Positions 3,319 through 49,463 of a stretch of 64,000 bases of DNA are shown in pieces. The position numbers and the translations under genes were made by a program. The DNA is taken from contig JAKLDG010000001.1 in assembly GCA_022703645.1 (NCBI GenBank), positions 443,277 to 507,276 on the forward strand, written 5' to 3'. This DNA is from Patescibacteria group bacterium. Lineage in GTDB: Bacteria; Patescibacteriota; JACPGU01. The notes beneath the pieces were generated by a model. The model had not been told where the DNA came from, made no database searches, and saw only the letters and a list, made by a program, of their open reading frames with translations. The stretch's first letter is position 1. Each line of letters opens with the position of its first letter.

Positions 3319-3921
3319 CATTTCCAAAATTTGTATTTTTTAACATTCTCTATAATTCCTATTTGAATTTTCAATCTCAAATGAACAAATACTCGTCAAA
3401 TTATAGAAAATCGATTCTAGAGCATTTAAACGCGAAATAGTCATTTTTCCAGGTTCAATTAGGGTGAGATTAGTAGGATTTATAGGATTTTTAAGACATT
3501 TTTGACATTTGAGAAAAAAATTAAAAAATGAGTAGGGGAGACTAGAGTAGATTTTGCGACATTCGCGGAATCCAAACGAATGTGCGCAAAATCTACGATA
3601 TGTTATGTGACAATGAAGAAGGGGAGCGAAAGCAAAAATATTTTTAATTTCCAAAATATTTATTGTAAATTTGAATAGCGGGGAATAAACCTTTTCTAAA
3701 TGAAACCCTTCTTCAGTGTCGCATAACATATATTGTGCGACGTACTAAAACTGTTACCCTATCTCAATTTGTCACGTTTTTTTATGCGCAACAAAATGCG
3801 CATTTTTTTGACCCCCCTACTCCCCAGCTCAATCATTCCTATAAAATTCCAGATTTTTCGGTATTTATATATTGCAACATATTCCCCTATTTTGTCAAGT
3901 ATTACTATTTTCAAAATAACA

Positions 3922-3938
3922 GGGCGCTTTTGGCGCCC
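3922..3938 (-). terminator. terminator downstream of the DAHP synthase gene
   Basis: GGGCGC-TTTTG-GCGCCC hairpin; on the minus strand it is followed by a T-rich run (TGTTATTTTG). Confidence 0.5.
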
Positions 3939-3965
3939 CATTTAAAAATGAAAATTTAAAAATAC

Positions 3966-4991
3966 TTAGATAGCCTTATCAAATACCGGAGCAATGCGCT
4001 TCAGCTCGCTCATAAGTTTTCCAAATTTTTCTATCGTAAGGCTTTGCGGACCATCGCAAAGTGCCTCCCATGGTTTGGGATGAACTTCGACCAATAATCC
4101 ATCAAACCCCCCTGCGACCGCCATTTTTGTGCTAATAGCGATCAGCTCGCGTATTCCAGTACCATGCGAAGGATCTATTATAACAGGCAGGTGTGTCATA
4201 ACAGTTTTCAGATATGCCGCGCCACCAAGATCTAGGGTGTTGCGCGTAGCTGTTTCAAAAGTACGTATTCCCCTCTCGCAAAGAATAACATTGGGATTAC
4301 CTTCCGATAAAATGTATTCTGCACTTTGCATTAATTCGTCCAGCGTCATTGAAAGTCCTCTTTTTAGAACCACTGGACGGACTCCCCTGCCGACTTCTTT
4401 CAGCAGATCGGAATTCTGCGCATTACGCGCGCCAATTTGCAAAATATCAACTACTTCACTCATTTTCTCGACCATCTGAGGTCTTGTGATCTCTGAAACA
4501 ATTGGCAAACCAATTTCTCCTTTAAGGCCATGAACGATCTCTATGCCCTCTTCTTCCATCCCCTGAAAAGCATACGGACCAGTTCTGGGCTTGTAAATGC
4601 CAACTCGCAGCATTGCGGCACCAGCCGCTTTTACCCCAGCTGCAGCGCTCATGAGCTGTTCCGGCGATTCCAGAGCGCAGGGACCGGCAATTACCACAAA
4701 TCTACCGTTGCCTATTTCTACATCCCCTACATGAATCTTTGTTTGAATCTTCGCCGCTTTTGCCGTAAGCTTGTAAGGCTTTGTTATTGGAGTTACTCTT
4801 TCCACCCCGTCCATTTGGGAAAAATGATCGATTAGTGGCTGCCTCTGATTGGTATCAATTATACCAATTATGGCAACCACAACGTTTTCTTTTCCCCTAT
4901 TCTCAACCACTTCAAAGCCCCTTGCCTCAACTTCCTTGCGAACCGTAGAGATATGTGATTCGCTTGCGCCACTTCTCATAATAATAACCAT
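3966..4991 (-). CDS. 3-deoxy-7-phosphoheptulonate (DAHP) synthase, class I-beta, with N-terminal ferredoxin-like/ACT regulatory domain (KDO8P synthase not fully excluded)
   Basis: 341 aa. N-terminal ~70-aa regulatory domain, then a catalytic core with 'RFVVIAGPCALES', 'LRVGIYKPRTGPYAFQG', 'VSEI', 'LQIGARN', 'VILCERGIRTFE' and 'IIDPSHG', characteristic of the DAHPS/KDO8PS TIM-barrel family. Architecture resembles Thermotoga/Bacillus-type DAHPS. Confidence 0.7.
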   Translation of the reverse strand: MVIIMRSGASESHISTVRKEVEARGFEVVENRGKENVVVAIIGIIDTNQRQPLIDHFSQMDGVERVTPITKPYKLTAKAAKIQTKIHVGDVEIGNGRFVVIAGPCALESPEQLMSAAAGVKAAGAAMLRVGIYKPRTGPYAFQGMEEEGIEIVHGLKGEIGLPIVSEITRPQMVEKMSEVVDILQIGARNAQNSDLLKEVGRGVRPVVLKRGLSMTLDELMQSAEYILSEGNPNVILCERGIRTFETATRNTLDLGGAAYLKTVMTHLPVIIDPSHGTGIRELIAISTKMAVAGGFDGLLVEVHPKPWEALCDGPQSLTIEKFGKLMSELKRIAPVFDKAI

Positions 4992-5200
4992 CTTCTTCCT
5001 ATCCTCCTTGTATTTTTTGATTTTTTAATGAACAAATAAAAAACTGACCGTTTTCGATCAGCTTTATACTTATTTAATCGATGATAAATAAAAGTTAGCT
5101 GATCGGTTGGTCAGTAAAGAAAAAGAAATACCAGCTATTCAACCTAACTATATTTTTCATAAAATTAATTATAATATAATATTCAAAGTCTTGTCAAATA

Positions 5201-8191
5201 TTAATGCAATTGAATTGATCCACCGGGATGAATAACGTTCTCATCTTTTTTATCTTCCTCTTCTGGCTGCGGCACTTGGGTATTTACAACTACCGTCCCC
5301 TGGTCTTCGTTTGAATCTTTTTTCATTATTTCAATACTGCCAAAATCCTTTGCAAGTTCTTCTTCGTTTGGTTTTTTATCGGCTGGTTCGGTATTTACTA
5401 CCACTCCCCCACTCTCCATTAGATTTTGAACCTGTTGAACAGGTTTAGTTTCCGTTTTTTCTTGCGGAATTTCTTTAATTTCCTCTTTAATTTCTTCCTT
5501 TTCCCCTTTTCCCTGTTTCTCTTCTAAATTCGTTATTCCAGATTCTAGATTCTTCTCCGCCTTCTTTTTTGCATACCAAATCCCACCTACTTTATCCTTA
5601 ATTTCACGGAATTTTTCGCCTGGTTTTTCTGTCACTTCTGGCAAAGATTCAGCGTCAATTAACTTGCCAAATCCCTTTTTATCTCCGAAATCTTTTTTCT
5701 TACCTTCAAGCTCCGCCATCTGAGCTGACCAAGTTAAAATAGCTTGTTCAACATCAGCTCTTGGCACAGCATATTTTGCGCGGGACTCTGCAATTATTCT
5801 ATCTCCAAGACCTTGAAACTTTCTAATATCTTTGAAATAAACGGTAGTAGCAGAAAAAGCTGGGTTTACCGCACCGTCAATTGTCATCTTCACGTAAATA
5901 TGTCTGTTGCTAAGATTTACCAAGTCAACTTCATCAAACACTGGTTCAAATGTTTTCTTAAATACTGGAGCATCATCCACGCTCACACGGAATGCGATAG
6001 TATTTCCTACGTTACCAAATACGGCATCACGGATTTCCGGATCCATTTGCGCGACATATTGGTGAGCCATTATTAGATTCAATTTATATTTTCTAGCCTC
6101 TGCAAGAATTGTTGCAAAAGAAGTGGTCGCAAAGTTCTGGAACTCGTCAACGTATAAGTAAAAGTCTTTCATATCTTCTTCTCTCATCGTTGATCTTTCC
6201 ATAGCGGTCAGCTGAATTTTGGTAATAATCATTGCACCAAGTAGAGCCATATTATCTTCACCGATTTCACCCTTGGAAATTTTTACCAAGAGGATTTTTT
6301 GATTATCCATTATATCTTTGATATCAAAAGTGCTTTGCGGCTGGCCAACAATATTACGAATCGATGGAACAGACAAAAATTGTCCAATTTTATTTTGAAT
6401 CGGAGCAATCGCTTCGGTAGCAAAACGCGGATTGGTTTTGAGTTGTACCTCATATTCATCTGTCCAAAATGCTTTTACGACTGGATCAGCAATATTATCC
6501 ACAATCATTTTGCGATAACCAGTATTCGTCAACATCTTGGTGGCTGAAAGCATTGTCGTTCCAGGTGTTTCCATGAGAGCGAGAATGATGTTTTTCATGA
6601 TATATTCCATACGCGCAGACCAGACGCCTTCCCATATTTTTTTGAATATACTCATCATCCCGGATGCTAATATTTCCCTCTTATGAACATCCACATTTTC
6701 GAGCAGATTGAATCCAAGACTGTATTCTCTATCTCCAGGATTTAGGTAGACAACATCATTAATACGTTTTTCCGGAATATAATCGAGCGCGGTATCCACA
6801 AATTCTCCGTGCGGATCAATAATCGCCAATCCCCTGCCCTCATCAATATCATCAAGTACCATGTTCTTCATCACGGTTGTTTTACCGGTTCCAGTTTGAC
6901 CAATGATATACATATGACGTCTGCGATCATCCATCTTAATTCCAAAATTCATATCTTTATCGCGGAAATTAACTTTACCAAAAACAGTCAAATCCTGTGA
7001 ATCCACAACTCCTTCCAAAGGCAATGTTGCAGGAGGCTCGCCTTTTTTGCTGCCTGCCCAATCGATGGTTGGAGTCTCTACAGTAACAGTTGGCAAGTGG
7101 AAAAGTGATGCCAACTCCTCAATATTAAATATGAACCCAGATTCTTCAAAATGTCTGGCTTGTACTGCATTAAGGTATTCGAAATCATCAAAATAAAGTC
7201 CTTTTGCCGCAAATCCATTGAGGTTTGAAGCATTAAATTGTTTAAAAGCTCCAACGATTGACTGCATTTTTATTTTCAGTTCTTCTGAAGATTTATTTGA
7301 TAAAAATGTTAAACGAATTTTTGTTTCATAACCAAGTTTGGTTGATTTTTCTTCAATCGCTTTCACTGCTTGTTCTACTGGACCGGGTAATTTAAAATCT
7401 TTTGATCCTTTACTTAAAGCTTCGGGAGATGCCAACAATTTAAAAAATAAAAATACTATTGAAAATAACTTCTTAATTATCCCCATTCCTGTAAAGGTAA
7501 ATTTAGAATCAGGTTTTTTACCAGATTTAATATCCGATACATATTTCATTGCACTTTGCTGCCATAAATCATCGACAGGACGGGTCAAAATCTGGATCCA
7601 AATCTGCTCGCCTTCATTCAATTGTGATATTACTCCGGTTATACTCGCCAAGGGATCCACTTCGAAATTTTGAAAAGATTTAATCGGATAAAAACTATTT
7701 CTGTTTAATATCAATTCTGTTCCGACAAAATGTATTCCCTCCGGCCTTTTGACTAATGTATAGTCTTCAACTTCTGATATTTCTACTGTCGGATATTGAG
7801 CATAAATCTGACCTTGAACAAAATCAACAAGATGTACCGGCACATAAACATAGAACCGCAGGTATTTATCTGAAGATACGATTTCAAAACTGATATGCTC
7901 CTGAAAAGATCCTTCTTCTAGTTTTTCTTTGGTACTTTTATGAATACCATGAAGAGACGCAAACATCATTTGTGCCGAAAGTGGCCCTTTTTCGTTCGCC
8001 CGAGGAACCTTAATAAGTAATGTGGTGTATTTTTGCTTTACTAGCCAAAGTCTTTTTCTACGCTTGCTATAAGCTTTTATAATTAACGAAAAACCAAAAA
8101 TCCAACCACCTATGATTAGTAAATAAAAAATGATTCGAAATGCGCCGAATAAGATGTCGGAGAAACTAAAACCATTAGATATTGATTCCAT
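5201..8191 (-). CDS. membrane-anchored P-loop ATPase of the type IV coupling protein (VirD4/TraG/TrwB-like) family
   Basis: 996 aa. N-terminal transmembrane segment (FGAFRIIFYLLIIGGWIFGFSLII). Walker A 'HMYIIGQTGTGKTTVMKNMVLDDIDEGRGLAIIDPHGEF' parallels TrwB 'GxTGxGKS...IVDPNG'. Walker B 'YLYVDEFQNF'. Long acidic/lysine-rich C-terminal tail. Confidence 0.65.
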   Translation of the reverse strand: MESISNGFSFSDILFGAFRIIFYLLIIGGWIFGFSLIIKAYSKRRKRLWLVKQKYTTLLIKVPRANEKGPLSAQMMFASLHGIHKSTKEKLEEGSFQEHISFEIVSSDKYLRFYVYVPVHLVDFVQGQIYAQYPTVEISEVEDYTLVKRPEGIHFVGTELILNRNSFYPIKSFQNFEVDPLASITGVISQLNEGEQIWIQILTRPVDDLWQQSAMKYVSDIKSGKKPDSKFTFTGMGIIKKLFSIVFLFFKLLASPEALSKGSKDFKLPGPVEQAVKAIEEKSTKLGYETKIRLTFLSNKSSEELKIKMQSIVGAFKQFNASNLNGFAAKGLYFDDFEYLNAVQARHFEESGFIFNIEELASLFHLPTVTVETPTIDWAGSKKGEPPATLPLEGVVDSQDLTVFGKVNFRDKDMNFGIKMDDRRRHMYIIGQTGTGKTTVMKNMVLDDIDEGRGLAIIDPHGEFVDTALDYIPEKRINDVVYLNPGDREYSLGFNLLENVDVHKREILASGMMSIFKKIWEGVWSARMEYIMKNIILALMETPGTTMLSATKMLTNTGYRKMIVDNIADPVVKAFWTDEYEVQLKTNPRFATEAIAPIQNKIGQFLSVPSIRNIVGQPQSTFDIKDIMDNQKILLVKISKGEIGEDNMALLGAMIITKIQLTAMERSTMREEDMKDFYLYVDEFQNFATTSFATILAEARKYKLNLIMAHQYVAQMDPEIRDAVFGNVGNTIAFRVSVDDAPVFKKTFEPVFDEVDLVNLSNRHIYVKMTIDGAVNPAFSATTVYFKDIRKFQGLGDRIIAESRAKYAVPRADVEQAILTWSAQMAELEGKKKDFGDKKGFGKLIDAESLPEVTEKPGEKFREIKDKVGGIWYAKKKAEKNLESGITNLEEKQGKGEKEEIKEEIKEIPQEKTETKPVQQVQNLMESGGVVVNTEPADKKPNEEELAKDFGSIEIMKKDSNEDQGTVVVNTQVPQPEEEDKKDENVIHPGGSIQLH

Positions 8192-8255
8192 AATATTATA
8201 ATACCAGAATTGTAAATGTATTTAAAGTGGATTTGATATCAAGATTGATATCATT

Positions 8256-8280
8256 CGGGCCGCGCTAAAAGCGCGGCCCG
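8256..8280. terminator. GC-rich hairpin (terminator-like) between the sigma-like gene and the coupling-protein gene
   Basis: Perfect 10-bp stem CGGGCCGCGC-TAAAA-GCGCGGCCCG, striking in an AT-rich intergenic region; A-rich upstream and TTTTTT downstream on the plus strand. Confidence 0.5.
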
Positions 8281-8322
8281 AATTATTCTATTTTTTGATT
8301 AATTGTTTTATTGCTTTTATGT

Positions 8323-12236: not shown

Positions 12237-12424
12237 AGTAAAGAAGTTACTTTTAGTTATATATGCATTGTAATGAAGTTCTTCACATTTTGCAAGAAGA
12301 AAAACGGGAAATTGTTAGCTTGTTATCTTGCTAACTTGCTAAGAGATTATAAACAAGATAACAATCTGCATATTTTAACAATCCATTGTATCGCCAATTA
12401 TAGCTTGTTTTAATTAAAAACTAT

Positions 12425-12453
12425 TGACACGTGAGCTATTTTATGATATATTT
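12425..12453 (+). promoter_or_regulatory. near-consensus sigma-70 promoter for the plus-strand secreted-protein gene
   Basis: TTGACA, 17-nt spacer, TATATT; perfect AGGAGG Shine-Dalgarno at 12584-12589, 8 nt before the ATG at 12598. Inverted repeat GTTATCTTG...CAAGATAAC (12328-12362) lies upstream as a possible operator. Confidence 0.55.
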
Positions 12454-12597
12454 ATTATATAATTTTTTAATCCGTATTGTAACTTAATATCTAATTTTTG
12501 GCTATTAAACCCTATTTTTGGGTTTTAATATAAACAAAAGCTATAACTTCCCTCGTCCGCTGGACAGGGATGAAAAAATTTTACAGGAGGTTCAGTA

Positions 12598-13368
12598 ATG
12601 AAAAAACTGACCATTATAGCAATCGTGGCAATCGTGTTAAGCACCATCGCCATCACGGGAACAACATCCGTCCGCGCCGACGACATTTCACAGGCTGTAT
12701 TTACAGCTTACAATGCCGATCCGAGCGGCGGCGCGTTCAAGGCAACAGGATATGCTTGCCTCAGCGCTGTAGATCCTATTCAGGGCGCTGAATCCGAATC
12801 CGATTACGGCATTACATATGCCCTGAGAGTGTGTTCCGGAGATTCACCCGCCCAGTATAATAAACGCGCCTGCAAGTCGCTAAAGTCGGGAGTAAACCGC
12901 ACAGCGGTTTATATGCGCGGAAAAGACGCTAAACTCGTCATTATGGATTGCCATTCAGCAATGAATGGCAGTCATATCTTCTTCCAAGAAAAAGAAAGTA
13001 TGGGGGAAGCAACCTTTGGCGACATGGACGAGTTCATGGGCGGACAGAAAACGGTCAACGGGAAAATTGTCGCGAACCAAAAGCAAATTCTCGACAACAT
13101 GGAAGCCGACACTTATAACAAAGGTGAAGCGAACAAAGTTCGCGTCGCAGCCGTGAAAAAGTCCTACAAGAAGATGGGAGTGACGAGAATTATCAACCTC
13201 GGCACATCCTTCATCAAGGACGAAGACACGCGCCGGGCAGTTGAGGCCGGAGCCGATTTCCTCGGCTACGACTACAACGCAATAACCGCTAATAACAGTA
13301 TCAAATCGCTGGAAGGAGATATTATCTCCGACGGCGGATTGCCCGAAGAAGAAACCGAGGAGCAATAA
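12598..13368 (+). CDS. secreted hypothetical protein (GC-rich ORFan)
   Basis: 256 aa. Signal peptide MKKLTIIAIVAIVLSTIAITGTTSVRADD. Four Cys, acidic C-terminus. Local GC is far above the window average. Plus strand in a minus-strand region. Confidence 0.7.
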   Translation: MKKLTIIAIVAIVLSTIAITGTTSVRADDISQAVFTAYNADPSGGAFKATGYACLSAVDPIQGAESESDYGITYALRVCSGDSPAQYNKRACKSLKSGVNRTAVYMRGKDAKLVIMDCHSAMNGSHIFFQEKESMGEATFGDMDEFMGGQKTVNGKIVANQKQILDNMEADTYNKGEANKVRVAAVKKSYKKMGVTRIINLGTSFIKDEDTRRAVEAGADFLGYDYNAITANNSIKSLEGDIISDGGLPEEETEEQ

Positions 13369-13399
13369 CCTCGGCAACAACATCAACTTTTAAATTTAA

Positions 13400-13428
13400 A
13401 AGCGACCCCGCAAGGGCCGCTTTTTTAT
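13400..13428 (+). terminator. rho-independent terminator
   Basis: GCGACCC-CGCAA-GGGCCGC hairpin (one mismatch) followed by TTTTTT. Confidence 0.65.
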
Positions 13429-14168
13429 TTCAAAATTTTCTTTAAATCCTCCGGCAAATCCGAATTGAAAAATAATTTCTTTCCAGTAACAGGATGTTTG
13501 AACGTTAACTCCGTTGCATGCAAGAATTGCCGGCTTAGTCCAATATTTTTTGAAAATACCTCCGAATCTCTATTTTTATATACCTGATCCCCAACTACCG
13601 GATGTCCAATCGCAAACATATGCGCGCGAATTTGATGAGTGCGTCCGGTCTCAATTTGAACTTTCAATAACGATATTGGATATTGGATATCGGATATCGG
13701 ATATTTTTTGTAATCGGATACTTCGTAGTGAGTTATTGCTAATTTTGCATCCTTTGATTTAGAAGCCACAAATCTTGTTCTATTTTTCAGATCCCGCTTT
13801 AATGCAATATTTATAGTCCCCTTCTTTGGTTCCAGCTTTCCAAATACTAATGCTGAGTAAATTTTCAAAACTCTATGAGAAGCAAATTGGTTTTGTAGAT
13901 TTATGAGAGCCTCTTTTGTCTTTGCGATGACCATTAAACCCGATGTATCGCGGTCAAGCCGATGGACTATACCGGATCTGGGCAGATCGATTCCAAAGTC
14001 TTTTTTCAATATAGTTTCAAGCGTTTGGTCATCTTTTTTTTGTGATTCAACAATAAGACCGGCTGGCTTGTTAATAACAAGTAAGCATGGATCTTGATAA
14101 ACAATGTTTAAATTTTCTTTAGCCATTAGTTGCAAAAAAATACTCAATGCCCAATTTCCAATACCCAA
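13425..14168 (-). CDS. RluA-family 23S rRNA pseudouridine synthase
   Basis: 247 aa. 'HRLDRDTSGLMVIAK' catalytic-Asp motif, 'VYQDPCLLVINKPAG', 'THQIRAHM'. Contains an in-frame heptamer repeat at 13667-13705. Confidence 0.85.
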   Translation of the reverse strand: MGIGNWALSIFLQLMAKENLNIVYQDPCLLVINKPAGLIVESQKKDDQTLETILKKDFGIDLPRSGIVHRLDRDTSGLMVIAKTKEALINLQNQFASHRVLKIYSALVFGKLEPKKGTINIALKRDLKNRTRFVASKSKDAKLAITHYEVSDYKKYPISDIQYPISLLKVQIETGRTHQIRAHMFAIGHPVVGDQVYKNRDSEVFSKNIGLSRQFLHATELTFKHPVTGKKLFFNSDLPEDLKKILK

Positions 14169-14230
14169 TTAGATATTAAATCATTGGATATTGATTGAAT
14201 ATTGAGTATTGGTTATTGGATATTATTAAC

Positions 14231-30536: not shown

Positions 30537-30629
30537 ACCAAGTAAAATAAAATAATCTTTACATATTGGCTTATTTATGCTATAATTTAAAGCATTAGGA
30601 AGAACATTACAAATTCAAGGAGGGCTAAA

Positions 30630-31304
30630 ATGCCTGAAAAAAAGAAGGTATTTCTGACAGATCCAAACTGGAGGGTGTTCGAAATTTCTTGGACGCCAAA
30701 AGACTATGGGGAAATAAAAAAGAAAAAAATCTCCAAGTTTTTAGCGGAACATCAGGACGGATGGTTCATGAATATCCTTTCACTGTCCAACGGAACGCTG
30801 ACTTTCCGCATCAAGGCAACTAAGAAAGAAAAAGAAAGTATTAGCTCACCGGTTTTCATCGGGAGAATTCTGACAAGAGCACAGAAAACTCTCTCCGGAG
30901 AAAAAATGGGGTTTATCGATGCCGATACCCATATTCGTGAAGAAGACTGCTCCATAAAAATCTTATACGTTTTCATAATTTCCGGAGACAACCTTCTTTA
31001 CCCGGTAAAAAGAATCGGCACTTCTGAAAAAAAAGTCTTGCTCGCACTAAACCCAGGCCGCGAAATCGTCAACATGAAGGTCTCAAAAGAAGAGCTGAAA
31101 GGAACATCAGCAGAATTCGCACCAACACTTCGGTCCTGCAAGAAAAATATCTGCTGGAAAAAAGAGTTCCCGATCGCGAAAGCCATCGAGGAAGAAATGC
31201 GCGAGCATCAAGAAAAAAAAGCATCAAACGCGAATACTCCTGCGAAAAAAGGTAGAAAGAAAGAAAGGTATGCAATCCCGGGTCAAGGAAATCTTGATCT
31301 ATAA
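30630..31304 (+). CDS. hypothetical protein (plus-strand ORFan with elevated GC)
   Basis: 224 aa, basic. Preceded by an extended -10 (TGCTATAAT at ~30580) and an AGGAGG SD 7 nt before the ATG. Confidence 0.6.
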   Translation: MPEKKKVFLTDPNWRVFEISWTPKDYGEIKKKKISKFLAEHQDGWFMNILSLSNGTLTFRIKATKKEKESISSPVFIGRILTRAQKTLSGEKMGFIDADTHIREEDCSIKILYVFIISGDNLLYPVKRIGTSEKKVLLALNPGREIVNMKVSKEELKGTSAEFAPTLRSCKKNICWKKEFPIAKAIEEEMREHQEKKASNANTPAKKGRKKERYAIPGQGNLDL

Positions 31305-31344
31305 CAATGCCACTTTTCCCTCAGTCTTTTTAGACTGCCGGGAA

Positions 31345-31366
31345 TTGCCTTCCGAAAGGGAGGCAT
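31345..31366 (+). terminator. rho-independent terminator between convergent genes
   Basis: GCCTTCC-GAAA-GGGAGGC hairpin then ATTTTTATTTT; sits between the stops at 31304 (+) and 31369 (-). Confidence 0.6.
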
Positions 31367-31368
31367 TT

Positions 31369-34300
31369 TTATTTTGCAAGATCCTCAATCAGGTTTTCCA
31401 ACTTTCTCAGCCAATCACTTCCTAACTTTTCCAAATCAATACGAACCAACATATTGCCAAAATACCAATAGCCATTTGTCGCAACAATTTTTCGTGATTC
31501 TTCTTTTGTTAAAACATGGTCAAATTCGATATATAATTTTTTGACCTTTACATCCGCAATCGATAAAACATCCTTTACGACCATAGATTTAATTCCAGCG
31601 GCCTTTGCAAGAATTTTTAATTTAATCAGTTCGAATAAATTATCAAACTTTTGTGGTATTTTACTTTCCTGATTTATAATTTCCTCCTTAATTTCCTCAA
31701 TTTCTTCAATTTCATCTATGCTTGCCAATTTCTGATACATTTTTATCTTATCCTCTTCCTTTTCATAAAATCCATCCGGAATTAACGCGGAAATCGGTAA
31801 ATCAATCTTAATTTCATCCTCGCTTTTTGCAAATGTCGATTTGCCTTCTTTAATATTCCCCACTGCTTCTTCGAGTAATCGAAGGTAGTATCCAACACCA
31901 ACCATTTGCATCGATCCATGCTGTTCTTTTCCAAGTATGTTTCCGGAACCTCTGATATCAAGATCTTCAAGTGATAACTGGTAGCCGGAACCAAGATCGC
32001 CTTTTTCGGTAATAGTTTTAAGCCGTCTTGCGGCATTGCCAACCAAGTCCTTCGAATCATAAAGAAAATATGCGTATGCTTGGCGGAAGCTTCTACCGAT
32101 TCTCCCGCGAAGTTGATGCAGTTGGGATAGACCAAACTTTGTCGCTTTGTCCACTATGAGAGTATTAACGGTTGAAATATCCAGCCCCGACTCAATAATC
32201 GTAGAACAAACCAAAACTTGGAATTTCCCTGCGGCAAAATCATTCATCACGTGAGCTAAAGCTTCCTCCCCCATTTGTCCATGTCCAATTCCAAAAGTCA
32301 CTTTTGGCAATAATGTTTTTAGTTTTCCCGCCAAGGCAGTAATTGTCCGCACTTCATTATGAACGAAGTAAACTTGTCCATCACGATCAATTTCTCTTTG
32401 AATTGCTTCTCGTATAATCTCTTCATCACCTTTTATCACGATGGTTTTTATTGGCAGTCTTCCTTCCGGCGGAGTCGCAATAACGCTAATATCTTTCAGC
32501 CCTGATAAACCCATGTAAAGAGTTCTTGGAATTGGGGTCGCAGTCATAGTGAGAATGTCCACTTTGTCGCGCAATTTTTTGAGCTTTTCCTTATGCTTTA
32601 CGCCGAATTTTTGTTCCTCATCAATAACTATCAACATGAGATTTTTGAATTTCATATCAGATGATAATAATCTGTGGGTCCCGATCACAATATCCACGTT
32701 TCCGCTTGCAATTTTTTTCACAATCTCTTTCTGCTCAGTAGTACTATGAAACCTAGACAAAGATTCTATATTGCAATGCAGAAATTCCAATCTTTCTCGG
32801 AATGTCTGCAGATGCTGCTCAGCAAGAATTGTTGTTGGTGTTAATACTGCAACTTGTCCACCCGAATCAATGACACGAGCAGCAGCGCGAATTGCCACTT
32901 CTGTCTTGCCATAGCCGACGTCTCCGCAGACAAGCCTATCCATCGGCTTTGCTTCCATCATGTCAGAAAGCACATCATCAATCGCTTTTTGCTGATCTGG
33001 CGTCGTTTTGTAAGCAAAGCTACGAGAAAGAGCGTCTTGCTCCTTCGCATCATTAATATATCGGTAAGGTTTTTCTCCAGATCGCAAAGCTTGCGTTTCG
33101 ATTAATTCTTTAGCGATTTTTTCAACATTTTCCTGAACTTTTTTACGGACTTTTAGCCAGTTTCCGGATTTCAAAGATGATAAAAGAGGACTTTGATTCC
33201 CAACGCTGATATATTTTGTTATTTTATCTGCCTGATCGAGTGGAACAAAAATCTTATCTCCTCCTCCGTATTCAATGAAAATATATTCCCGGCTGATTTT
33301 GTCTACTGTGATTTCCCCGAATCCGGTAAAAATACCAATACCATGATCAATATGCACGACATACTCACCTTTCTTCAGGTTTGTAATTGCCGAAAAATCT
33401 ATCTTTTTTTTCTTCCTGTTTTTAAATTGGCCAAATATCTCTTTATCACTAAAAATCGTGATGCCAAGACTTCCAAGATCAACTCCCTCGCTAAGATGCC
33501 CTCCAATAATTTGTACGGCCGAATGGCTGTTTGACCCTACTTCAATAGAGTTTTCCAATAAAAATTTCTTCATCTCATCTATCTTCTCGGTAACAATAAA
33601 AACCTCCCTCTCTTTTGTTTTATTGTTTTCTTGTTTTATTGTTTTCTTGATTTCATGAACAAATTCCATCACCGCGCCTTTATAGTTTTTCGGCGCAAAC
33701 CAAGAAAGGTTCACACCCTTTTTTTCATCTACATGGAATGGTTCAATATAAACAACCTTTTGTTTTTTTACAAAAGCCTCAAGATCTTTAAGTTTTTCGA
33801 TTTCGTCTTCGGTAACTTTATAATCATCAGATGAAAAATACGAAAAGAAACTGTTATTAAATTGATCTTCACCATCAACCAAAAAAACAAAACCGTCAAG
33901 ATATTTGAGAAAAAAATCACTTCCTTCTGTAATTTTATTTGGGTAGACTTCAATTTTCTCAAACTCTTTTTCGTTTACCAAGTCTGAAATTTTTTCAACT
34001 TCATCTCCAAAAAATTCAATTCTATATTGCTTTTCAAAAATATTTATCTCAAGAACATCTCCTTTCACACCAAACTCTCCCCTACTGCCGACTTTTTTCA
34101 CTTTTTCATATCCGTTTTTAACCAACTGATCCGGAATCTGATGCGCGATATCATATTTCTCGCCCTTTTTGATTTCAAAAAAACTCTCTTTGTAGTTTTC
34201 GATTGGAATGACGCGAGTAAATAGTGTTTCGAAATCGATAAATACCGCCTTATTTTTATTCTCCGGCAAGTACAATTCTTCAACGTTGTCTGTTCTTAAC

Positions 34301-43015: not shown

Positions 43016-45073
43016 TTATCTATTGATTACTTTCAAAGCTTTGTCCAAATTACCACTTTCTTTCATATAGATGTAAGAAGCGATAGAGATGAATGCAGCT
43101 AATAGTATCAATGCAAGAACTGTTTCAGAAGTTCCTGAGCTTGGCAAAGTTGTTACAGCTCCACCACCCAAATTGATGGTAACTAAGCTTGAAACAGATG
43201 TAATGCCATCAGCGGTACCGTTTGCAGAGTAAGTCAATTGAGAGATATTACTTGGAGTATCACTCTTCACCTTTGCAGAAAATTCATAATACCCAGTAGC
43301 ACCCACGCTTAAGTCGCCTAGACTTATACCATTTGAGAATGAGCTGTCAGCAGTAGAGGTTGTGTTACCAGATAAAACTACTTTTACTGAACCAGCAACA
43401 AACTCCATATTTTTTGGCAACGCATTTGTTAACTTAACGTTAGCAAGCTCAGCATTTCCAACGTTTGCGAAATCAACATGGAATTTGATAACATCGCCTC
43501 TGTTTGCAGAAACAACATTATTGAATCCAATTGATTTTGCAGCTGTTGAATTATATGCAGTAGCATTTACGAATAAGTTCTTTGCAGCTGTAGGTTCACC
43601 GCTTACTGTAATAATACCATTGTTATCTGATAATGAAATTCCAGAACCAATTACTTGGTTGTCAGCAGCATATGTACCAGCAGCAGTGTTACCAGAAACC
43701 TTAACTTTATAAGTTAAGTAAAACCAGTGAGCACCTGCTAAATCAGGTAATATAACACCATTACCAGCACCATTGATAGCGTCAGCTAATGGCATAACTT
43801 GGTCAGTACCTGTCGCATCTTCATAATACAATTTTGAAAATCCTGGAACGTATTCAATTCCAGCTGGCATTATAGCGCGAGCGTGAAGAATTGTAGCAGC
43901 TGAGCTACCACGGTTTGTGATAGTCATTCTGTAGATTAATTCGTCGCCTGGGTTTGCATTAACGCTTTGTGTGTAAGCTTTGTCTCCCTTTGTAAGATTA
44001 TACAAAGATGAAGCCAAAGTTACATTTGTGTTGATAGTTGTACCAACAGCAATCAAGCCATTGTTATCTGATAATGAAATTCCAGAACCAATTACTTGGT
44101 TGTCAGCAGCATATGTACCAGCAGCAGTGTTACCAGAAACCTTAACTTTATAAGTTAAGTAAAACCAGTGAGCACCTGCTAAATCAGGTAATATAACACC
44201 ATTACCAGCACCATTGATAGCGTCAGCAATTGGAATAACTTGGTCAGTACCTGTCGCATCTTCATAATACAATTTTGCAAATCCTGGAACGTATTCAATT
44301 CCAGCTGGCATTATAGCGCGAGCGTGAAGAATTGTAGCAGCTGAGCTACCACGGTTTGTGATAGTCATTCTGTAGATTAATTCGTCGCCAGCAGATGCAT
44401 TAACGCTAGGGTTATAAGCAGTCTCACCTTTTGTTAAATTGTATAGAGATGATGCAAGATATACTTGTGGTTGGCTAGTATTTGTATTGTCACCAACGCT
44501 TGAAGTAGCAGGAGTACCTGTCGTAACGCTTGCAGGTACGCTCGCGCCACCAGCAACAACTGATGCGTTATTTGCTGATAATGCAACTCCGCCATTTGCC
44601 ATTACCTGATTATCAGGGGCAAATGATCCGCTAGCAGCAGAAACAGTAGCTTTGTAAGTTACAAAAGCAGTAGTTCCAGCTGGAATGTCAATTCCAAGAG
44701 AAGTTCCTGCAGCTGAAGCGATAGCATCAGCAACTGGAGCTACTTTGTCAGCACCACTTAAATCTTTGTAATATACTTTTGAATATCCGGCAGTATATTG
44801 TAAACCGGCTGGCATAGTAACTCTTGCCATTACTCCTGTTGCAGGAGTTGCAGAACCATTAGTAATGTTCATTGCAAAAAGCACGCTATTACCATTAGCT
44901 GCATTGACAGAATTTGTCCATACCTTATTTCCAGATGTAATATTTGCTACAGCGGATGTCAAAGACAAACCGGCAGCAGATGTTGCAACTGGAGCAACAA
45001 TAGCGAAAGTCATAAGACCAATCGCTAAATAATTTATTAATTTTTTAATCATTTTTTCTCCTTTTGATAACAT
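43016..45073 (-). CDS. surface protein with DUF11-like repeat domains and LPXTG-like C-terminal sorting signal
   Basis: 685 aa. Signal peptide (probable start MIKKLINYLAIGLMTFAIVAPVATSAAG). Two near-identical ~147-aa internal repeats. C-terminus 'LPSSGTSETVLALILLAAFISIASYIYMKES' = LPxxG, hydrophobic span, charged tail. Confidence 0.7.
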   Translation of the reverse strand: MLSKGEKMIKKLINYLAIGLMTFAIVAPVATSAAGLSLTSAVANITSGNKVWTNSVNAANGNSVLFAMNITNGSATPATGVMARVTMPAGLQYTAGYSKVYYKDLSGADKVAPVADAIASAAGTSLGIDIPAGTTAFVTYKATVSAASGSFAPDNQVMANGGVALSANNASVVAGGASVPASVTTGTPATSSVGDNTNTSQPQVYLASSLYNLTKGETAYNPSVNASAGDELIYRMTITNRGSSAATILHARAIMPAGIEYVPGFAKLYYEDATGTDQVIPIADAINGAGNGVILPDLAGAHWFYLTYKVKVSGNTAAGTYAADNQVIGSGISLSDNNGLIAVGTTINTNVTLASSLYNLTKGDKAYTQSVNANPGDELIYRMTITNRGSSAATILHARAIMPAGIEYVPGFSKLYYEDATGTDQVMPLADAINGAGNGVILPDLAGAHWFYLTYKVKVSGNTAAGTYAADNQVIGSGISLSDNNGIITVSGEPTAAKNLFVNATAYNSTAAKSIGFNNVVSANRGDVIKFHVDFANVGNAELANVKLTNALPKNMEFVAGSVKVVLSGNTTSTADSSFSNGISLGDLSVGATGYYEFSAKVKSDTPSNISQLTYSANGTADGITSVSSLVTINLGGGAVTTLPSSGTSETVLALILLAAFISIASYIYMKESGNLDKALKVINR
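43617..44498. repeat. tandem duplication (2 x 441 bp) within the surface-protein gene
   Basis: 43617-44057 and 44058-44498 are nearly identical over ~330 bp (e.g. CCATTGTTATCTGATAATGAAATTCCAGAACCAATTACTTGG...GTTAAGTAAAACCAGTGAGCACCTGCTAAATCAGG), diverging towards the 3' ends. Period 441 = 147 codons, in frame. Confidence 0.85.
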
Positions 45074-45403
45074 TTTCGTCTATTCTTATTCTCGTGTCAT
45101 CGACCCTCACCAACCTGACACTTCAAAAAATCCCAAGACAAAAACGTACAAATTTAAGTTTATTATTATTTGTTAACTATTATTAATCTATTCTAAAAAA
45201 TATTTAATATAGATTATTATTTTAAGTTATCAAGTTTGTTTGCTCGCTAATTATCACTAATTAATCGCTAATTTCGCTAATGGATTCAAAATTACCCATT
45301 CGTGAAATTCGTGAAAAATTCGCGACAATTCGCATTTCTCTATTATATATATTCAGTTAAGGAAAACAAATTTTTTGCGAATACCTTTATAAAAAATATG
45401 AGT

Positions 45404-45432
45404 GCGGCGAATGGGGAAACCCCCATTCGCCG
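45404..45432 (-). terminator. rho-independent terminator of the GC-rich lipoprotein gene
   Basis: Perfect 13-bp stem GCGGCGAATGGGG-AAA-CCCCATTCGCCGC; T-run follows on the minus strand. Confidence 0.7.
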
Positions 45433-45551
45433 CATACATTTCAAAAGGAATTGCGGTTAAACACTTAACTACTCCGGGGAAGCAGTTTCAGCGCTAACCA
45501 TTGGGTTGAATGTCCTCTCTCGACTGATTTTGCCCATAGGCAGGGTAAAAC

Positions 45552-47060
45552 TCAGAAGAGAGAAGAGTTGCTCTCCGCGGCCGGAGGAGGAGGCGGAGGC
45601 GGAGGAACTACCCCCACCGACGCCACATTCGAAATATTGGTCTTGCCTGAATCCTCAAAACCAGAAGTCTTCACTGCCGACGTCGGATTGGATCGCGGAG
45701 AAGGTTCCGGCCATGCGTTCGCGCCGATAACTGAGGTACTGGTGCCTGCGCCACCGGTCGTACCGGGAGCGGGCTGCCAGTCAGAATCCCATACTTGAGA
45801 ATTCGGAACGTCAGGGGTTATACCCGAGACGTTCGTGGTATCCGCAACATTTCCGCATTTCTCGCAATACTGTCCGGCACCGCCATTGCCGTTTCCTGGT
45901 GTCGGATTCGGGTTCGGATTCGATGCGGGAGGAGGTGGAGGGACAGGCCGATTCTTACCGAAAACATTATCCTGAATCTTCTTCGGCATAATATTTACTG
46001 TGGCATCCCAGAGTAAATAGTCGAAGAAAAGTCCGGCTGGGTTAAGCACGCACTTGCGTCCGTGCATCGACTTCTTGAGGCTCATGTCGCACAGAGGCTT
46101 GTCGATGTACATATCTCCGAGCGTCCCCATGGTTGCGCCGATAATAGTATCTCTTTTGTTCTTCTTCGGCTTGGCCGCGAGCGAGTTGCAGTAGGAGCCA
46201 AGACTTTTGTACCATGTGTTGTTCGGGTCGAGCTCGATGAGTCTGCCGATCATCTTACAAAGAGCGTTCCAGTCACCAGCGTTATATAACGCCCGCGCCT
46301 GATTGTCCAGATCGTTTGCAGTATTGCCTGCGGAGGCTTTTTTCTTCTTGCCCGCTGGCGGTACTGAACCAACTGTCGGTTTCGTGTTCGTCGCGAAGCT
46401 GGGGCTGGTCACGATCTTGTGAATATCGTTGACCTGTTTCCCGGTTTTGATGATCACTGGTTTAGTTTCCCGCACGATCTTGACGGTTTCAGCGGTATCT
46501 TTCTTGATGTCCTTGATACCGGATTTGATTTCCTTGTGGTCGGCTTTGTTTTCGCGCAGTGCGTCGAAAACATTTGGGACATCTTCGCTGGGTACACCAA
46601 GTTTGTCGTCTACGACTTCAATGCCGAACTCGGTCAAGGCGGTATAGACGCACGTCAGATGTTCAATGTCCTTACCCTCTTTCGAAATGCAAGGGTCTAC
46701 GATACGCGCCTTATAATCATTGGGGCAATTAGCAATCATTTTCCTGATCATGTCCGGCTTTGCCTTCTGGGCTACCAGACGCTGAGCGACCTTACCCCCA
46801 GGGGCACAGACCATCGTACATGTTTGCACGAGGCCCTTGTCCACAAGCTCCTCGCATTTAATGATATTCCCCTTGGGAACGACATCCTTTAGGAGTTTGC
46901 TGGCATCTTTCGCTGTCCCCGTGCCGGCGTCCTTTGTGACGACGGTCGGGTTCTTCGATACCTTCTGTGTCTTGGCGCATCCGCCGGCAAAAACCGCTCC
47001 GGCGAGAATCGCAATCATCAGAATCATCGGTAGCAATGCTACCTTGCGCAACCTCTTCAT
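45552..47060 (-). CDS. secreted lipoprotein, hypothetical (GC-rich, Pro/Gly-rich C-terminal half)
   Basis: 502 aa. Lipobox-like 'LAGAVFAGGC'. C-terminal 'PPPPPPAAESNSSLF' and 'PVPPPPPASNPNPNPTPGNGNGGAG'. Strong SD (AGGAGG 9 nt before the ATG). GC far above the window average. Confidence 0.7.
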   Translation of the reverse strand: MKRLRKVALLPMILMIAILAGAVFAGGCAKTQKVSKNPTVVTKDAGTGTAKDASKLLKDVVPKGNIIKCEELVDKGLVQTCTMVCAPGGKVAQRLVAQKAKPDMIRKMIANCPNDYKARIVDPCISKEGKDIEHLTCVYTALTEFGIEVVDDKLGVPSEDVPNVFDALRENKADHKEIKSGIKDIKKDTAETVKIVRETKPVIIKTGKQVNDIHKIVTSPSFATNTKPTVGSVPPAGKKKKASAGNTANDLDNQARALYNAGDWNALCKMIGRLIELDPNNTWYKSLGSYCNSLAAKPKKNKRDTIIGATMGTLGDMYIDKPLCDMSLKKSMHGRKCVLNPAGLFFDYLLWDATVNIMPKKIQDNVFGKNRPVPPPPPASNPNPNPTPGNGNGGAGQYCEKCGNVADTTNVSGITPDVPNSQVWDSDWQPAPGTTGGAGTSTSVIGANAWPEPSPRSNPTSAVKTSGFEDSGKTNISNVASVGVVPPPPPPPPAAESNSSLF

Positions 47061-47692
47061 AGCGTTTTACCTCCTGTTATCCATAGATTTACCTCTTTCA
47101 AAAGTGAATGAGGCGGTGGTTGGGGTTTTCGCTATGTACTATCCCTATGCTTGTCCCCCCGCAGGAAAGCACTTGGAATCAAAAATATGTTTACTGATCC
47201 CTGCCTCAAAAATATCGAGGGCCTATCAGGAATCAGGTAACCTCCTTTCATTTTCTTGCTCCCCTTCCAAATTTGGAAAGAAAGTTTTGTTGTCCTTAAC
47301 TGAATATAATAATAGAATTATTTATTCTTACTCTGCTCGATTTTTAATGTACATATCCTTTTATAAAAACAAAAACCCAAGACAAATAACTATTTGGCCC
47401 GAGTTTCTGTTTTCATTGTGTATTGGCTTTTTTTGTCCATGTTTCCATAGACTTGGCTTTTTGTCATATAAAAGATATTTTGGCTTTTTTAAAAATGATC
47501 CCTTTTACGATATGTGGCCATTTTAACACATTTTTTCAATAACGTCAATAATATTTATGTAAAATAAGCTATTTTATAAAAACAACCTAGAAAAACAAAA
47601 AGGACAAAATAATTTTTGCCCTCCTCAAAAACTTTTTTTCTCTCATTTTTAAATATTTTAGCAAATTTTAAATGGGTAGTCAACGGGATAAA

Positions 47693-48884: not shown

Positions 48885-49463
48885 ATGAAAGAGCAAACTT
48901 TAAAAAGATTCCTAACAACAATGAGCTTCGTCTTACTAATGTCATTAGCCCACCAGATTGAAGCAAGCGAATTAAAAAACGAGTCAAATCGCGAAACTGA
49001 TGGTATTGCTATTTCTCAAAGACTTGGGAATATTAATATGACTTCAAACGATGAATATCCTGAAATATTACCACTACAACAAGGTATTATTAAAGAAAAT
49101 AAGTTTCTTGATATGGGACAAGTAAAAATAGCGGTTAAGCAGTTTAAACAGGATATTAAAGGAACTGAATTAGAAAACCTAACTGAACAGAACATTTTTG
49201 GTTCGTTATCGCAAAGCAAAAACCTCGGTAAAATCCGCAATTTCCTATCGGAGAAAGAACGTAAGTTGGCAGAAAAAAATTTATATATAGAACATGGCGG
49301 TTTATCTTATAACCCCAAGAAAAACGAAGCAAAGAGTTATGAATTTGTCCTAAACCCAAAAAAAGGTATCACGGCTGGCTATTCAAAGGAGTCGGAGAAC
49401 AAAGCAATGAAAATAAAGGTTGATAAAAACTCAGTAAACTTAGAAAAATCATTTAAGTTTTAA
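48885..49463 (+). CDS. secreted hypothetical protein
   Basis: 192 aa. Signal peptide MKEQTLKRFLTTMSFVLLMSLAHQIEA; Lys/Asn/Glu-rich. Confidence 0.6.
   Translation: MKEQTLKRFLTTMSFVLLMSLAHQIEASELKNESNRETDGIAISQRLGNINMTSNDEYPEILPLQQGIIKENKFLDMGQVKIAVKQFKQDIKGTELENLTEQNIFGSLSQSKNLGKIRNFLSEKERKLAEKNLYIEHGGLSYNPKKNEAKSYEFVLNPKKGITAGYSKESENKAMKIKVDKNSVNLEKSFKF

Follow-up and report, generated by a model that had tools for sequence, protein, structure and literature searches.

Genomic islets and ORFans of atypical composition are commonly attributed to horizontal transfer and are read within the amelioration framework of Lawrence and Ochman. Here we describe three GC-rich genes, ORFan1, prot2, and prot3, in a 64,000-nt stretch of DNA (the window) from a Patescibacteria group bacterium, a member of the candidate phyla radiation (CPR) (GenBank assembly GCA_022703645.1, contig JAKLDG010000001.1, positions 443,277 to 507,276, forward strand). 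Like genomic islets, these genes deviate from their host in GC content and codon usage, are patchily distributed, encode family-less accessory products, and form single-gene units with signals of their own. They differ from islets in that ORFan1 is not accompanied by mobility genes, tRNA sites, or direct repeats and in that its anomaly is limited to the coding sequence (CDS), and they differ from classical amelioration in that the ORFan1 anomaly has outlasted a split deep enough to saturate synonymous sites. In CPR episymbionts, secreted and surface proteins restricted to single lineages are a known class, and ORFan1, a small Sec-type cysteine protein, and prot3, a putative lipoprotein, resemble that class in evolving fast and in having no known domains; the organism itself resembles CPR episymbionts in its reduced genome with type IV pili and DprA. 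Unlike these two, the other exported and hypothetical proteins of the same genome are encoded by AT-rich genes without a Shine-Dalgarno (SD) sequence. We give about even credence to the reading that the GC-rich genes are clade-restricted exported-protein genes, anciently acquired and then vertically inherited, with a GC-richness that has been maintained and is left unexplained.

ORFan1 (12598-13368, plus strand; 256 residues) stands out by its composition and has one homologue, P0005. Its promoter (12424-12452, plus strand) matches the consensus at 11 of 12 positions, with TTGACA, a 17-nt spacer, TATATT, and a TG ahead of the -10 box. Transcription would start near 12459, giving an AT-rich 5′ leader of ~140 nt (12459-12597, plus strand) that carries a box, TTTTAATCCGTATTGTAACTTAAT, found nowhere else in the window (12465-12488), two small hairpins (12508-12527 and 12551-12569), and an AGGAGG SD at 12585-12590, 7 nt ahead of the ATG. 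Residues 1 to 27 (12598-12678; MKKLTIIAIVAIVLSTIAITGTTSVRA, followed by DD) read as a Sec signal peptide with an n-region (MKK), an h-region (LTIIAIVAIVLSTIAI), and an AXA-type site (TGTTSVRA ahead of DD), with cleavage predicted between VRA27 and DD; with this layout, ORFan1 is predicted to be a Sec-exported substrate of signal peptidase I. The remainder comprises an N-terminal domain (residues ~28 to 135) with four conserved cysteines (C54, C79, C92, and C118) and an acidic, divergent C-terminal half. AlphaFold2 gave no usable fold (predicted local distance difference test scores of 34 for ORFan1 alone and 31 with its one homologue). Downstream lies a terminator, AAAAGCGaCCC-CGCAA-GGGcCGCTTTTTT (13398-13426, plus strand; -14.2 kcal/mol, z = -4.0), a hairpin that a strict pattern scan missed and whose stem has one A·C mismatch. 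It has an A-run/T-run on both sides, so that it could work in either direction and also serve the convergent rluA gene (stop at 13425).

Relatives of ORFan1 were exceedingly few. A word-indexed search of 5.8 billion proteins returned ORFan1 alone, and when all 1.84 billion cluster representatives (~15 billion proteins) were searched in full with HMMER, a sole true relative emerged, P0005 (269 residues; E = 1.3e-22), which is 42% identical to ORFan1 over residues 1 to 163. Both proteins have a signal peptide, of the same layout, and the four cysteines are invariant; the C-terminal halves are essentially unalignable. A second match, the 3398-residue repeat protein P0006 (E = 4.5e-5), was rejected as a repeat-inflated chance similarity, in which six stretches match residues 135 to 172. 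The proportion of nonsynonymous differences between ORFan1 and P0005 (pN = 0.39) is lower than that of synonymous differences (pS = 0.78), as would be expected of a real protein-coding gene under purifying selection.

P0005 is encoded on a 1.47-kb contig, L083, that repeats the AT-GC-AT layout of the window. Its flanks are 31 to 36% GC (31% on the 5′ side), and its CDS, at GC 0.563 and a GC content at third codon positions (GC3) of 0.715, is more GC-rich than ORFan1 itself. The promoter elements (-35 TTGACA, TG, and -10 TATATT) are kept, as is the early-leader box (TTTTAATCCGyyTTGyAwCTTAAT in the two sequences); an AGGAGG SD is present, and a terminator with a perfect 9-bp stem stands in the equivalent position. 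The leader folds weakly better than shuffled sequence in both organisms (z = -1.2 in the window and -2.1 in L083). Behind P0005, on the opposite strand, lies the 3′ end of an rluA gene that has 73% amino acid identity to the window rluA and a GC3 of 0.30. With a convergent rluA beside the gene, this layout puts ORFan1 at the matching locus of another AT-rich organism. Since P0005 and P0003, a homologue of prot3, both come from run SRR22387874, it appears that one sister organism carries both genes.

The separation between the two organisms is large. Over the 83 codons of the rluA fragment, pS was 0.65 and dS was ~1.5. Identical codons at conserved residues numbered 29 in ORFan1 against 28.3 expected, 31 against 26.4 in rluA, and 124 against 103 in prot3 and P0003, so that codon identity is at the chance level and synonymous sites are saturated. 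Protein divergence (dN) was 0.56 in the N-terminal part of ORFan1 and 0.38 in prot3, as opposed to 0.21 in the rluA fragment; ORFan1 and prot3 evolve faster than this fragment of their neighbor. With a homologue standing beside rluA and synonymous sites saturated, ORFan1 either predates a deep split or occupies a site that has been hit repeatedly.

The second exported-type gene, prot3 (45552-47060, minus strand; 502 residues), stands out by its composition and has two homologues, P0003 (53% identity over 94% of the length) and P0004 (62% over the C-terminal 40%). The three proteins share a near-invariant block (residues ~300 to 377) and a poly-proline tail ending in F (PPPPPPPP...F in prot3), and pN and pS against the homologue were 0.30 and 0.71. 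By the strict definition used, a lipobox reads [LVI][ASTVI][GAS]C, closes the signal peptide, and is kept across the family; the N-terminal signal sequence of prot3 has a lipobox-like FAGGC (...AVFAGGC28) that fits a looser PROSITE-type pattern, and the cysteine is neither aligned nor conserved in P0003 or P0004. The statement in the initial annotation that the three genes belong to no recognizable family was borne out: neither ORFan1 nor prot2 matched anything in Pfam, NCBIfam, PHROGs, PADLOC, or PDB sequences, and prot3 matched nothing in Pfam (TPR included), NCBIfam, PHROGs, or PADLOC. The exception is a single TPR-like motif in prot3 (residues ~250 to 291) that matches designed CTPR proteins among the PDB sequences (E = 9e-5 with a three-sequence profile). 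A search with the prot3 profile returned two metagenome matches, L085, which was already known, and L087, which was rejected as a TPR-bearing kinase.

The 5′ leader of prot3, of ~245 nt (47061-47316, minus strand), with an AGGAGG SD at 47070-47075, is homologous to the leader in the sister contig L084 (positions 1 to 226) and in part to that in L085 (1 to 155). Shuffled sequences fold somewhat less well than the leader (z = -2.4 and -2.6), and several of its hairpins persist although loops and stems have changed; the three sequences are too few for covariation statistics. On the other side, a 3′ untranslated region (UTR) of ~117 nt (45435-45551, minus strand; 47% GC), blocks of which match the L084 3′ flank by eye, leads into a terminator with a 14-bp perfect GC-rich stem and a T-run (45403-45434, minus strand; -32.2 kcal/mol, z = -7.1), the strongest terminator-like hairpin of the window. 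The leaders and UTRs had no match in Rfam at the gathering score, and permissive searches gave sub-threshold hits at the chance level.

Invertible switches such as fimS, hin/hix, and the promoter inversions of Bacteroides, and the terminal inverted repeats of insertion sequences (IS) and of miniature inverted-repeat transposable elements (MITEs), are known arrangements that the prot3 unit resembles in being bracketed by an inverted repeat. The repeat, of 36 to 37 nt, encloses a GC-rich unit of 1.98 kb; the initial annotation had seen no repeat boundary, which was wrong for prot3. The left arm, TCTATTATATATATTCAGTTAAGGAAAACAAATTTTT (45339-45375, plus strand), is complementary to the right arm (47281-47316, minus strand) at 89% over 28 nt and over ~36 nt with a 1-nt indel, and the whole 64 kb has just two copies of the motif TCTATTAT(A)TATATTCAGTTAAGGAMAACAAA, inverted relative to each other, where none would be expected. 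The right arm holds the -10-like TATTATATT and the first part of the conserved leader, and L084 shares 28 identical nt with it. In the left arm, this prot3 promoter and transcript-start sequence recurs in convergent orientation, facing the 3′ end of prot3 across the terminator, and the repeat may be a duplicated promoter, possibly an antisense one. Unlike switches and MITEs, the unit has no recombinase, transposase, or target-site duplication nearby and is found in one copy and one orientation, and because the repeat contains the prot3 promoter, inversion would not obviously switch expression. An invertible switch was not supported (no recombinase; one orientation in all seven contigs read, at the four places listed), and neither was a MITE or IS element (no transposase, no target-site duplication, and a motif present only twice in the window).

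Two further arrays were noted by eye upstream of the left arm, ~4 direct-repeat copies of TCRCTAAT at 45243-45283 and ~4 copies of ATTCGYGA with 9- to 11-nt spacing at 45297-45335; both look like operator or iteron-like binding sites. Beside prot3 lies a gene for a DUF11/CLIPPER surface protein (43016-45073, minus strand) with internal repeats of ~420 bp that are 92 to 94% identical. Three of four independent contigs (L088 to L091) end inside this gene, which suggests an assembly-breaking repeat or a strain-variable region.

To compare composition, we used the 50 other window genes as background (GC3 0.313 ± 0.039; maximum, 0.398). ORFan1 (GC 0.495, GC3 0.564, z = +6.4) and prot3 (GC 0.529, GC3 0.606, z = +7.5) stood far outside this range, and prot2 was only a moderate outlier (GC 0.416, GC3 0.449, z = +3.5). 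The log-likelihood of their synonymous codons under background usage gave z = -5.0, -6.1, and -2.0 for ORFan1, prot3, and prot2, respectively, and so the deviation reported for the three genes was reproduced, most weakly for prot2. The GC-high genes favor C-ending codons, with arginine codons shifted to CGC, and the GC-high zone of ORFan1 starts and stops with the CDS, its promoter and leader being 12 to 35% GC. No GC3 or C-ending bias was found in enolase, L9, pilin, or PFOR, presumably well-expressed native genes, and the other exported proteins of the window are encoded by AT-rich genes. The initial annotation had held that native-like codon statistics, together with conserved presence at the same locus, would count against a foreign origin; the codon statistics were clearly not native-like, and presence at the same locus was found in part, in L083.

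Genomes that are poor in SD sequences with a strong-SD minority are known, as are bacteria rich in leaderless mRNAs. In the window, a scan of start regions found no SD-like motif in 42 of 54 genes and AGGAGG in 4, namely, ORFan1, prot2, prot3, and a gene for 3-deoxy-d-arabino-heptulosonate 7-phosphate (DAHP) synthase. Several genes have TATAAT or TGnTATAAT ending 6 to 8 nt ahead of the ATG (for example, the minus-strand genes starting at 8191, 16551, 23235, 34566, 52547, and 56056), which suggests that leaderless mRNAs are widespread. In these respects and in its small strong-SD subset, the window resembles SD-poor genomes; it departs from them in that the perfect-SD subset consists of compositional outliers and not of ribosomal or housekeeping genes. 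The perfect-SD genes are exactly the four GC-high genes, a coincidence with a chance of 1/C(54,4), or ~3e-6, and the distinguishing mark of the GC-high genes is their ribosome-binding site. The contrast that had been drawn between perfect SDs on the three genes and weak SDs elsewhere is therefore confirmed, and the foreign-looking signature is real and sharper than claimed.

The other expression signals are less telling. GC-rich hairpins followed by T-runs are also found at native genes (8286, with -28 kcal/mol; 16594/16626; 23278; 38341; and 42964), and since these native hairpins are strong, terminators are no distinguishing mark of the GC-high genes. All three terminators described earlier as unusually GC-rich do fold as hairpins, but native ones equal or exceed them, and the prot3 terminator alone is extreme. 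Similarly, a near-consensus promoter had been assigned to each unit and was recovered for ORFan1 and prot2 (11 of 12 matches) but not for prot3, at whose leader start no near-consensus -35/-10 pair was found; extended -10 boxes were also seen at native gene starts. The native hairpin with -28 kcal/mol (8250-8290) has 14 bp, nearly all of them G-C, and lies between genes for a DUF87 ATPase and a sigma-factor-like protein.

The persistence of high GC3 across the split could be set against a simple two-state decay with an equilibrium GC3 of ~0.31, in which each lineage is taken to have undergone 0.75 or more synonymous substitutions per site, a figure drawn from the 83-codon rluA fragment, and in which half to two-thirds of these substitutions change GC. 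Under this model, we infer that ~30 to 40% of an initial GC3 excess would be left in each lineage. Even an ancestor with 100% GC3 would then be expected to stand at ~0.5 to 0.6 now, which is below the 0.715 of L083 and the 0.64 to 0.71 of the prot3 homologue contigs L084 and L085, and the window values of 0.56 to 0.61 would be hardly compatible with decay even from such an ancestor. Read backward, the observed range of 0.56 to 0.72 would call for ancestors at close to 100% GC3 or more. Because the observed GC3 lies above the decay expectation, something would have had either to preserve the GC-richness (selection acting on mRNA or translation, or biased conversion) or to renew it through repeated replacement. 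Boundaries that coincide with the CDS, and a promoter and leader that are AT-rich and conserved, speak against biased gene conversion and against simple block import; the same boundaries and the same conserved promoter and leader make precise recurrent replacement awkward; and the lack of bias in native, presumably well-expressed genes argues against ordinary translational selection.

The distribution of ORFan1 in the wider group was examined at the slot between rluA and secD. Relatives were gathered by a SecD scan, with one genome per GTDB species, and all identities and absences given here hold among the matches listed. The closest relatives have SecD proteins 56 to 59% identical to that of the window. 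Six of them (L003 to L007 and L010) keep the order rluA-X-secD-secF, in some cases followed by DUF1290, and X is a same-strand gene of 207 to 208 residues in three, a pair of genes for guanylate kinase (gmk) and mannose-1-phosphate guanylyltransferase (manC) in two, and a 4-kb insert in one. An ORFan1 homologue was X in none of the six, and none of these slot genes (the 207- to 208-residue gene, gmk, and manC) was found elsewhere in the window. The slot is thus variable in the wider group, with ORFan1 there just in the window organism and its sister. A check of synteny at rluA and secD, which had been proposed as a sign of insertion, therefore has a divided outcome: ORFan1 is absent from six relatives and present beside rluA in L083.

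We propose that the GC-rich genes are accessory genes of a wastewater CPR lineage that most likely entered horizontally before the split between the window organism and its sister (SRR22387874). After entry, they would have stayed at fixed places in the chromosome, each as an autonomous transcription unit of one gene in which a sigma-70-type promoter is followed by a long 5′ leader with a perfect SD and, behind the gene, by a hairpin terminator. ORFan1 would be exported through Sec, cleaved after VRA27, and act outside the cell as a small four-cysteine protein, probably with disulfide bonds; prot3, whose C-terminal domain is conserved and whose tail is rich in proline, would be exported and belong to the envelope, possibly anchored there by a lipid. 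Both might plausibly serve the cell-surface, host, or phage interactions of an episymbiont, and their GC-rich codon usage would mark them not as decaying relics but as genes that are actively maintained or renewed. If this cautious reading is true, ORFan1 and prot3 represent two new, tiny, fast-evolving families of exported proteins specific to one clade of wastewater CPR, and both would be candidates in the little-understood surface biology of ultrasmall episymbiotic bacteria. The cause of GC-rich codons in so few genes also bears on how different initiation modes and codon dialects coexist in reduced genomes.

Several points weigh against ancient acquisition followed by vertical inheritance. 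No donor was found, the homologues being limited to a few metagenomic sequences, so that the case for a foreign origin is made by composition and the SD. No integrase, tRNA, or direct-repeat boundary was seen at ORFan1. Positional orthology could be established for ORFan1 alone, on one side (rluA), and over a fragment of 83 codons, and relatives closer than those among the matches listed may exist. Finally, because the GC zone of ORFan1 ends at the CDS and its leader is AT-rich, selection on the coding sequence or mRNA fits no less well than would the import of a DNA block.

This last point leads to the strongest alternative, which is possible at a low probability: the genes are native and belong to a special expression regime, in which selection on mRNA or translation keeps a small class GC-rich and SD dependent. 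Such a regime might protect the mRNA from AU-specific RNases, keep out spurious AT-rich promoters, terminators, or silencers, or provide a separate, SD-led initiation channel. The confinement of GC-richness to the CDS, flanked by a conserved AT-rich promoter and leader, fits this explanation, as do its persistence in each of the five family members although synonymous sites are saturated, the conservation of the SD in all homologues, and the lack of a known donor, and a second AT-rich CPR locus (L072) likewise has three GC-rich, family-less genes of exported type. Against it, enolase, L9, pilin, and PFOR, which are native and presumably well expressed, have no bias toward high GC3 or C-ending codons, and the other exported proteins of the window come from AT-rich genes. 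The arginine shift to CGC resembles a different genomic dialect more than simple optimization, a conserved enzyme that is a plausible transfer, DAHP synthase, has the same SD and GC signature, and the genes are absent from the more distant relatives among the matches listed. A fuller version, to which we assign the same low probability, would have the exported-gene class at a gene-specific, GC-rich codon equilibrium with a perfect SD, kept by mRNA or translation selection through the saturated divergence, to which prot3 would add its structured leader and a convergent duplicate promoter that might exert antisense control.

The L072 locus was found when 652 open reading frames (ORFs) of the other retrieved CPR loci were scanned for high GC3, and it holds the sole strong outlier. 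Three GC-rich (0.50 to 0.64), family-less genes lie there at 3409-5893 with AT-rich DNA between them; they encode one signal-peptide protein and two lipobox proteins, and the first is followed by a GC-hairpin terminator and has a GC3 of 0.74, where the median of the locus is 0.26. Signal peptides were not significantly enriched among GC3-high genes of 46 AT-rich CPR loci (P = 0.29), in a test made weak by a crude, over-calling predictor and by the fact that most short outliers are spurious ORFs. L072 is an anecdote of a recurring pattern, short of proof.

A less likely alternative, which we regard as doubtful, is that the sites are hot spots of recurrent cassette replacement, at which each lineage took up different and only distantly related GC-rich alleles after the split, so that the GC-richness is young. 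The route would be natural transformation, for which DprA and the type IV pilus genes are at hand, followed by homologous recombination through the AT-rich flanks. Such renewal would explain a GC3 too high for neutral amelioration since the split, and the variable rluA-secD slot, the 36- to 37-nt inverted repeat bounding the prot3 cassette, and the presence of dprA in the window are all consistent with it. It would, however, require a precise swap of CDS for CDS, after which promoter, leader box, SD, and terminator position were all still homologous, from a GC-rich source pool of which ~15 billion proteins gave no sign, and the alleles, far from being the less diverged, differ more than the flanking gene does. 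Neither a transposase nor an integrase nor a target-site duplication was found, and there were no copies in the viral contigs scanned: with both protein profiles and two DNA motifs, these contigs yielded no relatives, the 16-mer and 18-mer matches being without extended homology.

Recent horizontal acquisition of self-contained cassettes by this genome alone, the original proposal, now appears quite improbable. The strong deviation in composition and codon usage and the perfect SDs speak for it, as does the absence of the genes from the closest GTDB representatives among the matches listed. Recent insertion of ORFan1 is nevertheless contradicted by the sister, in which a homologue with homologous regulatory DNA stands at rluA across saturated synonymous divergence; in addition, the ORFan1 promoter and leader are AT-rich like the host, and terminators of this type are native to the genome. 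Because the ORFan1 locus is conserved across a saturated split, calling recent transfer from composition can mislead here. An assembly or binning artefact, in which GC-rich pieces of a different organism ended up inside an AT-rich contig, is barely credible, since sharp GC boundaries are all that favors it and the identical arrangement is found in seven or eight independent contigs, with the same AT-GC-AT layout in an independent sister contig.

These contigs come from ENA, JGI, NCBI, and Logan assemblies, in all four of which the window DNA is found identically; all contigs of the window organism are 99.96 to 100% identical and in a single orientation. Because the arrangement is 100% identical in contigs of several samples, it is not a misassembly. 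One run with identical DNA, SRR5007146, is a virome sample of New York City wastewater (PMC7300365), and it was the only one of the sample accessions that could be traced in the literature to a described sample.

The third gene of the initial annotation, prot2 (30630-31304, plus strand; 224 residues, basic), makes a weaker case. It has a promoter with 11 of 12 consensus matches (TTTACA, a 17-nt spacer, and TATAAT with TG; 30558-30586, plus strand), an AGGAGG SD (30618-30623, plus strand), and a terminator region of two tandem hairpins (31316-31375, plus strand; -28.2 kcal/mol, z = -5.8), the second of which has an 8-bp GC stem (31346-31365) and is followed by a T-run. Its N-terminus, MPEKKKVFLTDPNWRVFEISW, contains no hydrophobic segment and no signal peptide, and prot2 may well be a cytoplasmic basic protein, as judged from its sequence. 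The description of all three products as secreted thus applies to ORFan1, with its signal peptide, and to prot3, with its signal sequence, but not to prot2. Protein searches and a tblastn search of phages and plasmids returned no homologue of prot2 but itself, and neither prot2 nor ORFan1 has convincing flanking direct or inverted repeats.

The fourth perfect-SD gene encodes a DAHP synthase of the Thermotoga type with a ferredoxin-like N-terminal domain (3966-4991, minus strand; GC 0.46, z = +3.5) and was itself probably acquired horizontally.

The window as a whole has a GC content of 37.2% and a GC skew that is steadily negative along its length, and nearly all of its genes are on the minus strand. 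They include secDF, rluA, recR, topA, dprA, mfd, pth, ftsEX, prfB, and rmuC, genes for enolase, PFOR, L9, and a UvrD-type helicase, and a type IV pilus cluster; a tRNA search of the window found none, and no integrase, transposase, or recombinase was seen among the neighbor genes scanned. ORFan1 and prot2 had been called the only plus-strand genes, which holds between ~3.3 and 48.8 kb, but a gene at 48885-49463 and two genes at the start of the window are also on the plus strand. Several AT-rich window genes likewise belong to no family, so that ORFan status by itself is nothing special here. The plus-strand gene at 48885-49463, which is AT-rich (GC 0.33) and family-less and encodes 192 residues with a signal peptide, is a counterpart of ORFan1 with ordinary composition. 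The rluA coding region contains a tandem TATTGGATAT/TATCGGATAT repeat at 13674-13704, corresponding to a repeated YPISDIQ segment, and an extra copy of this repeat lies at 14207-14223 in the intergenic region between rluA and LOG.

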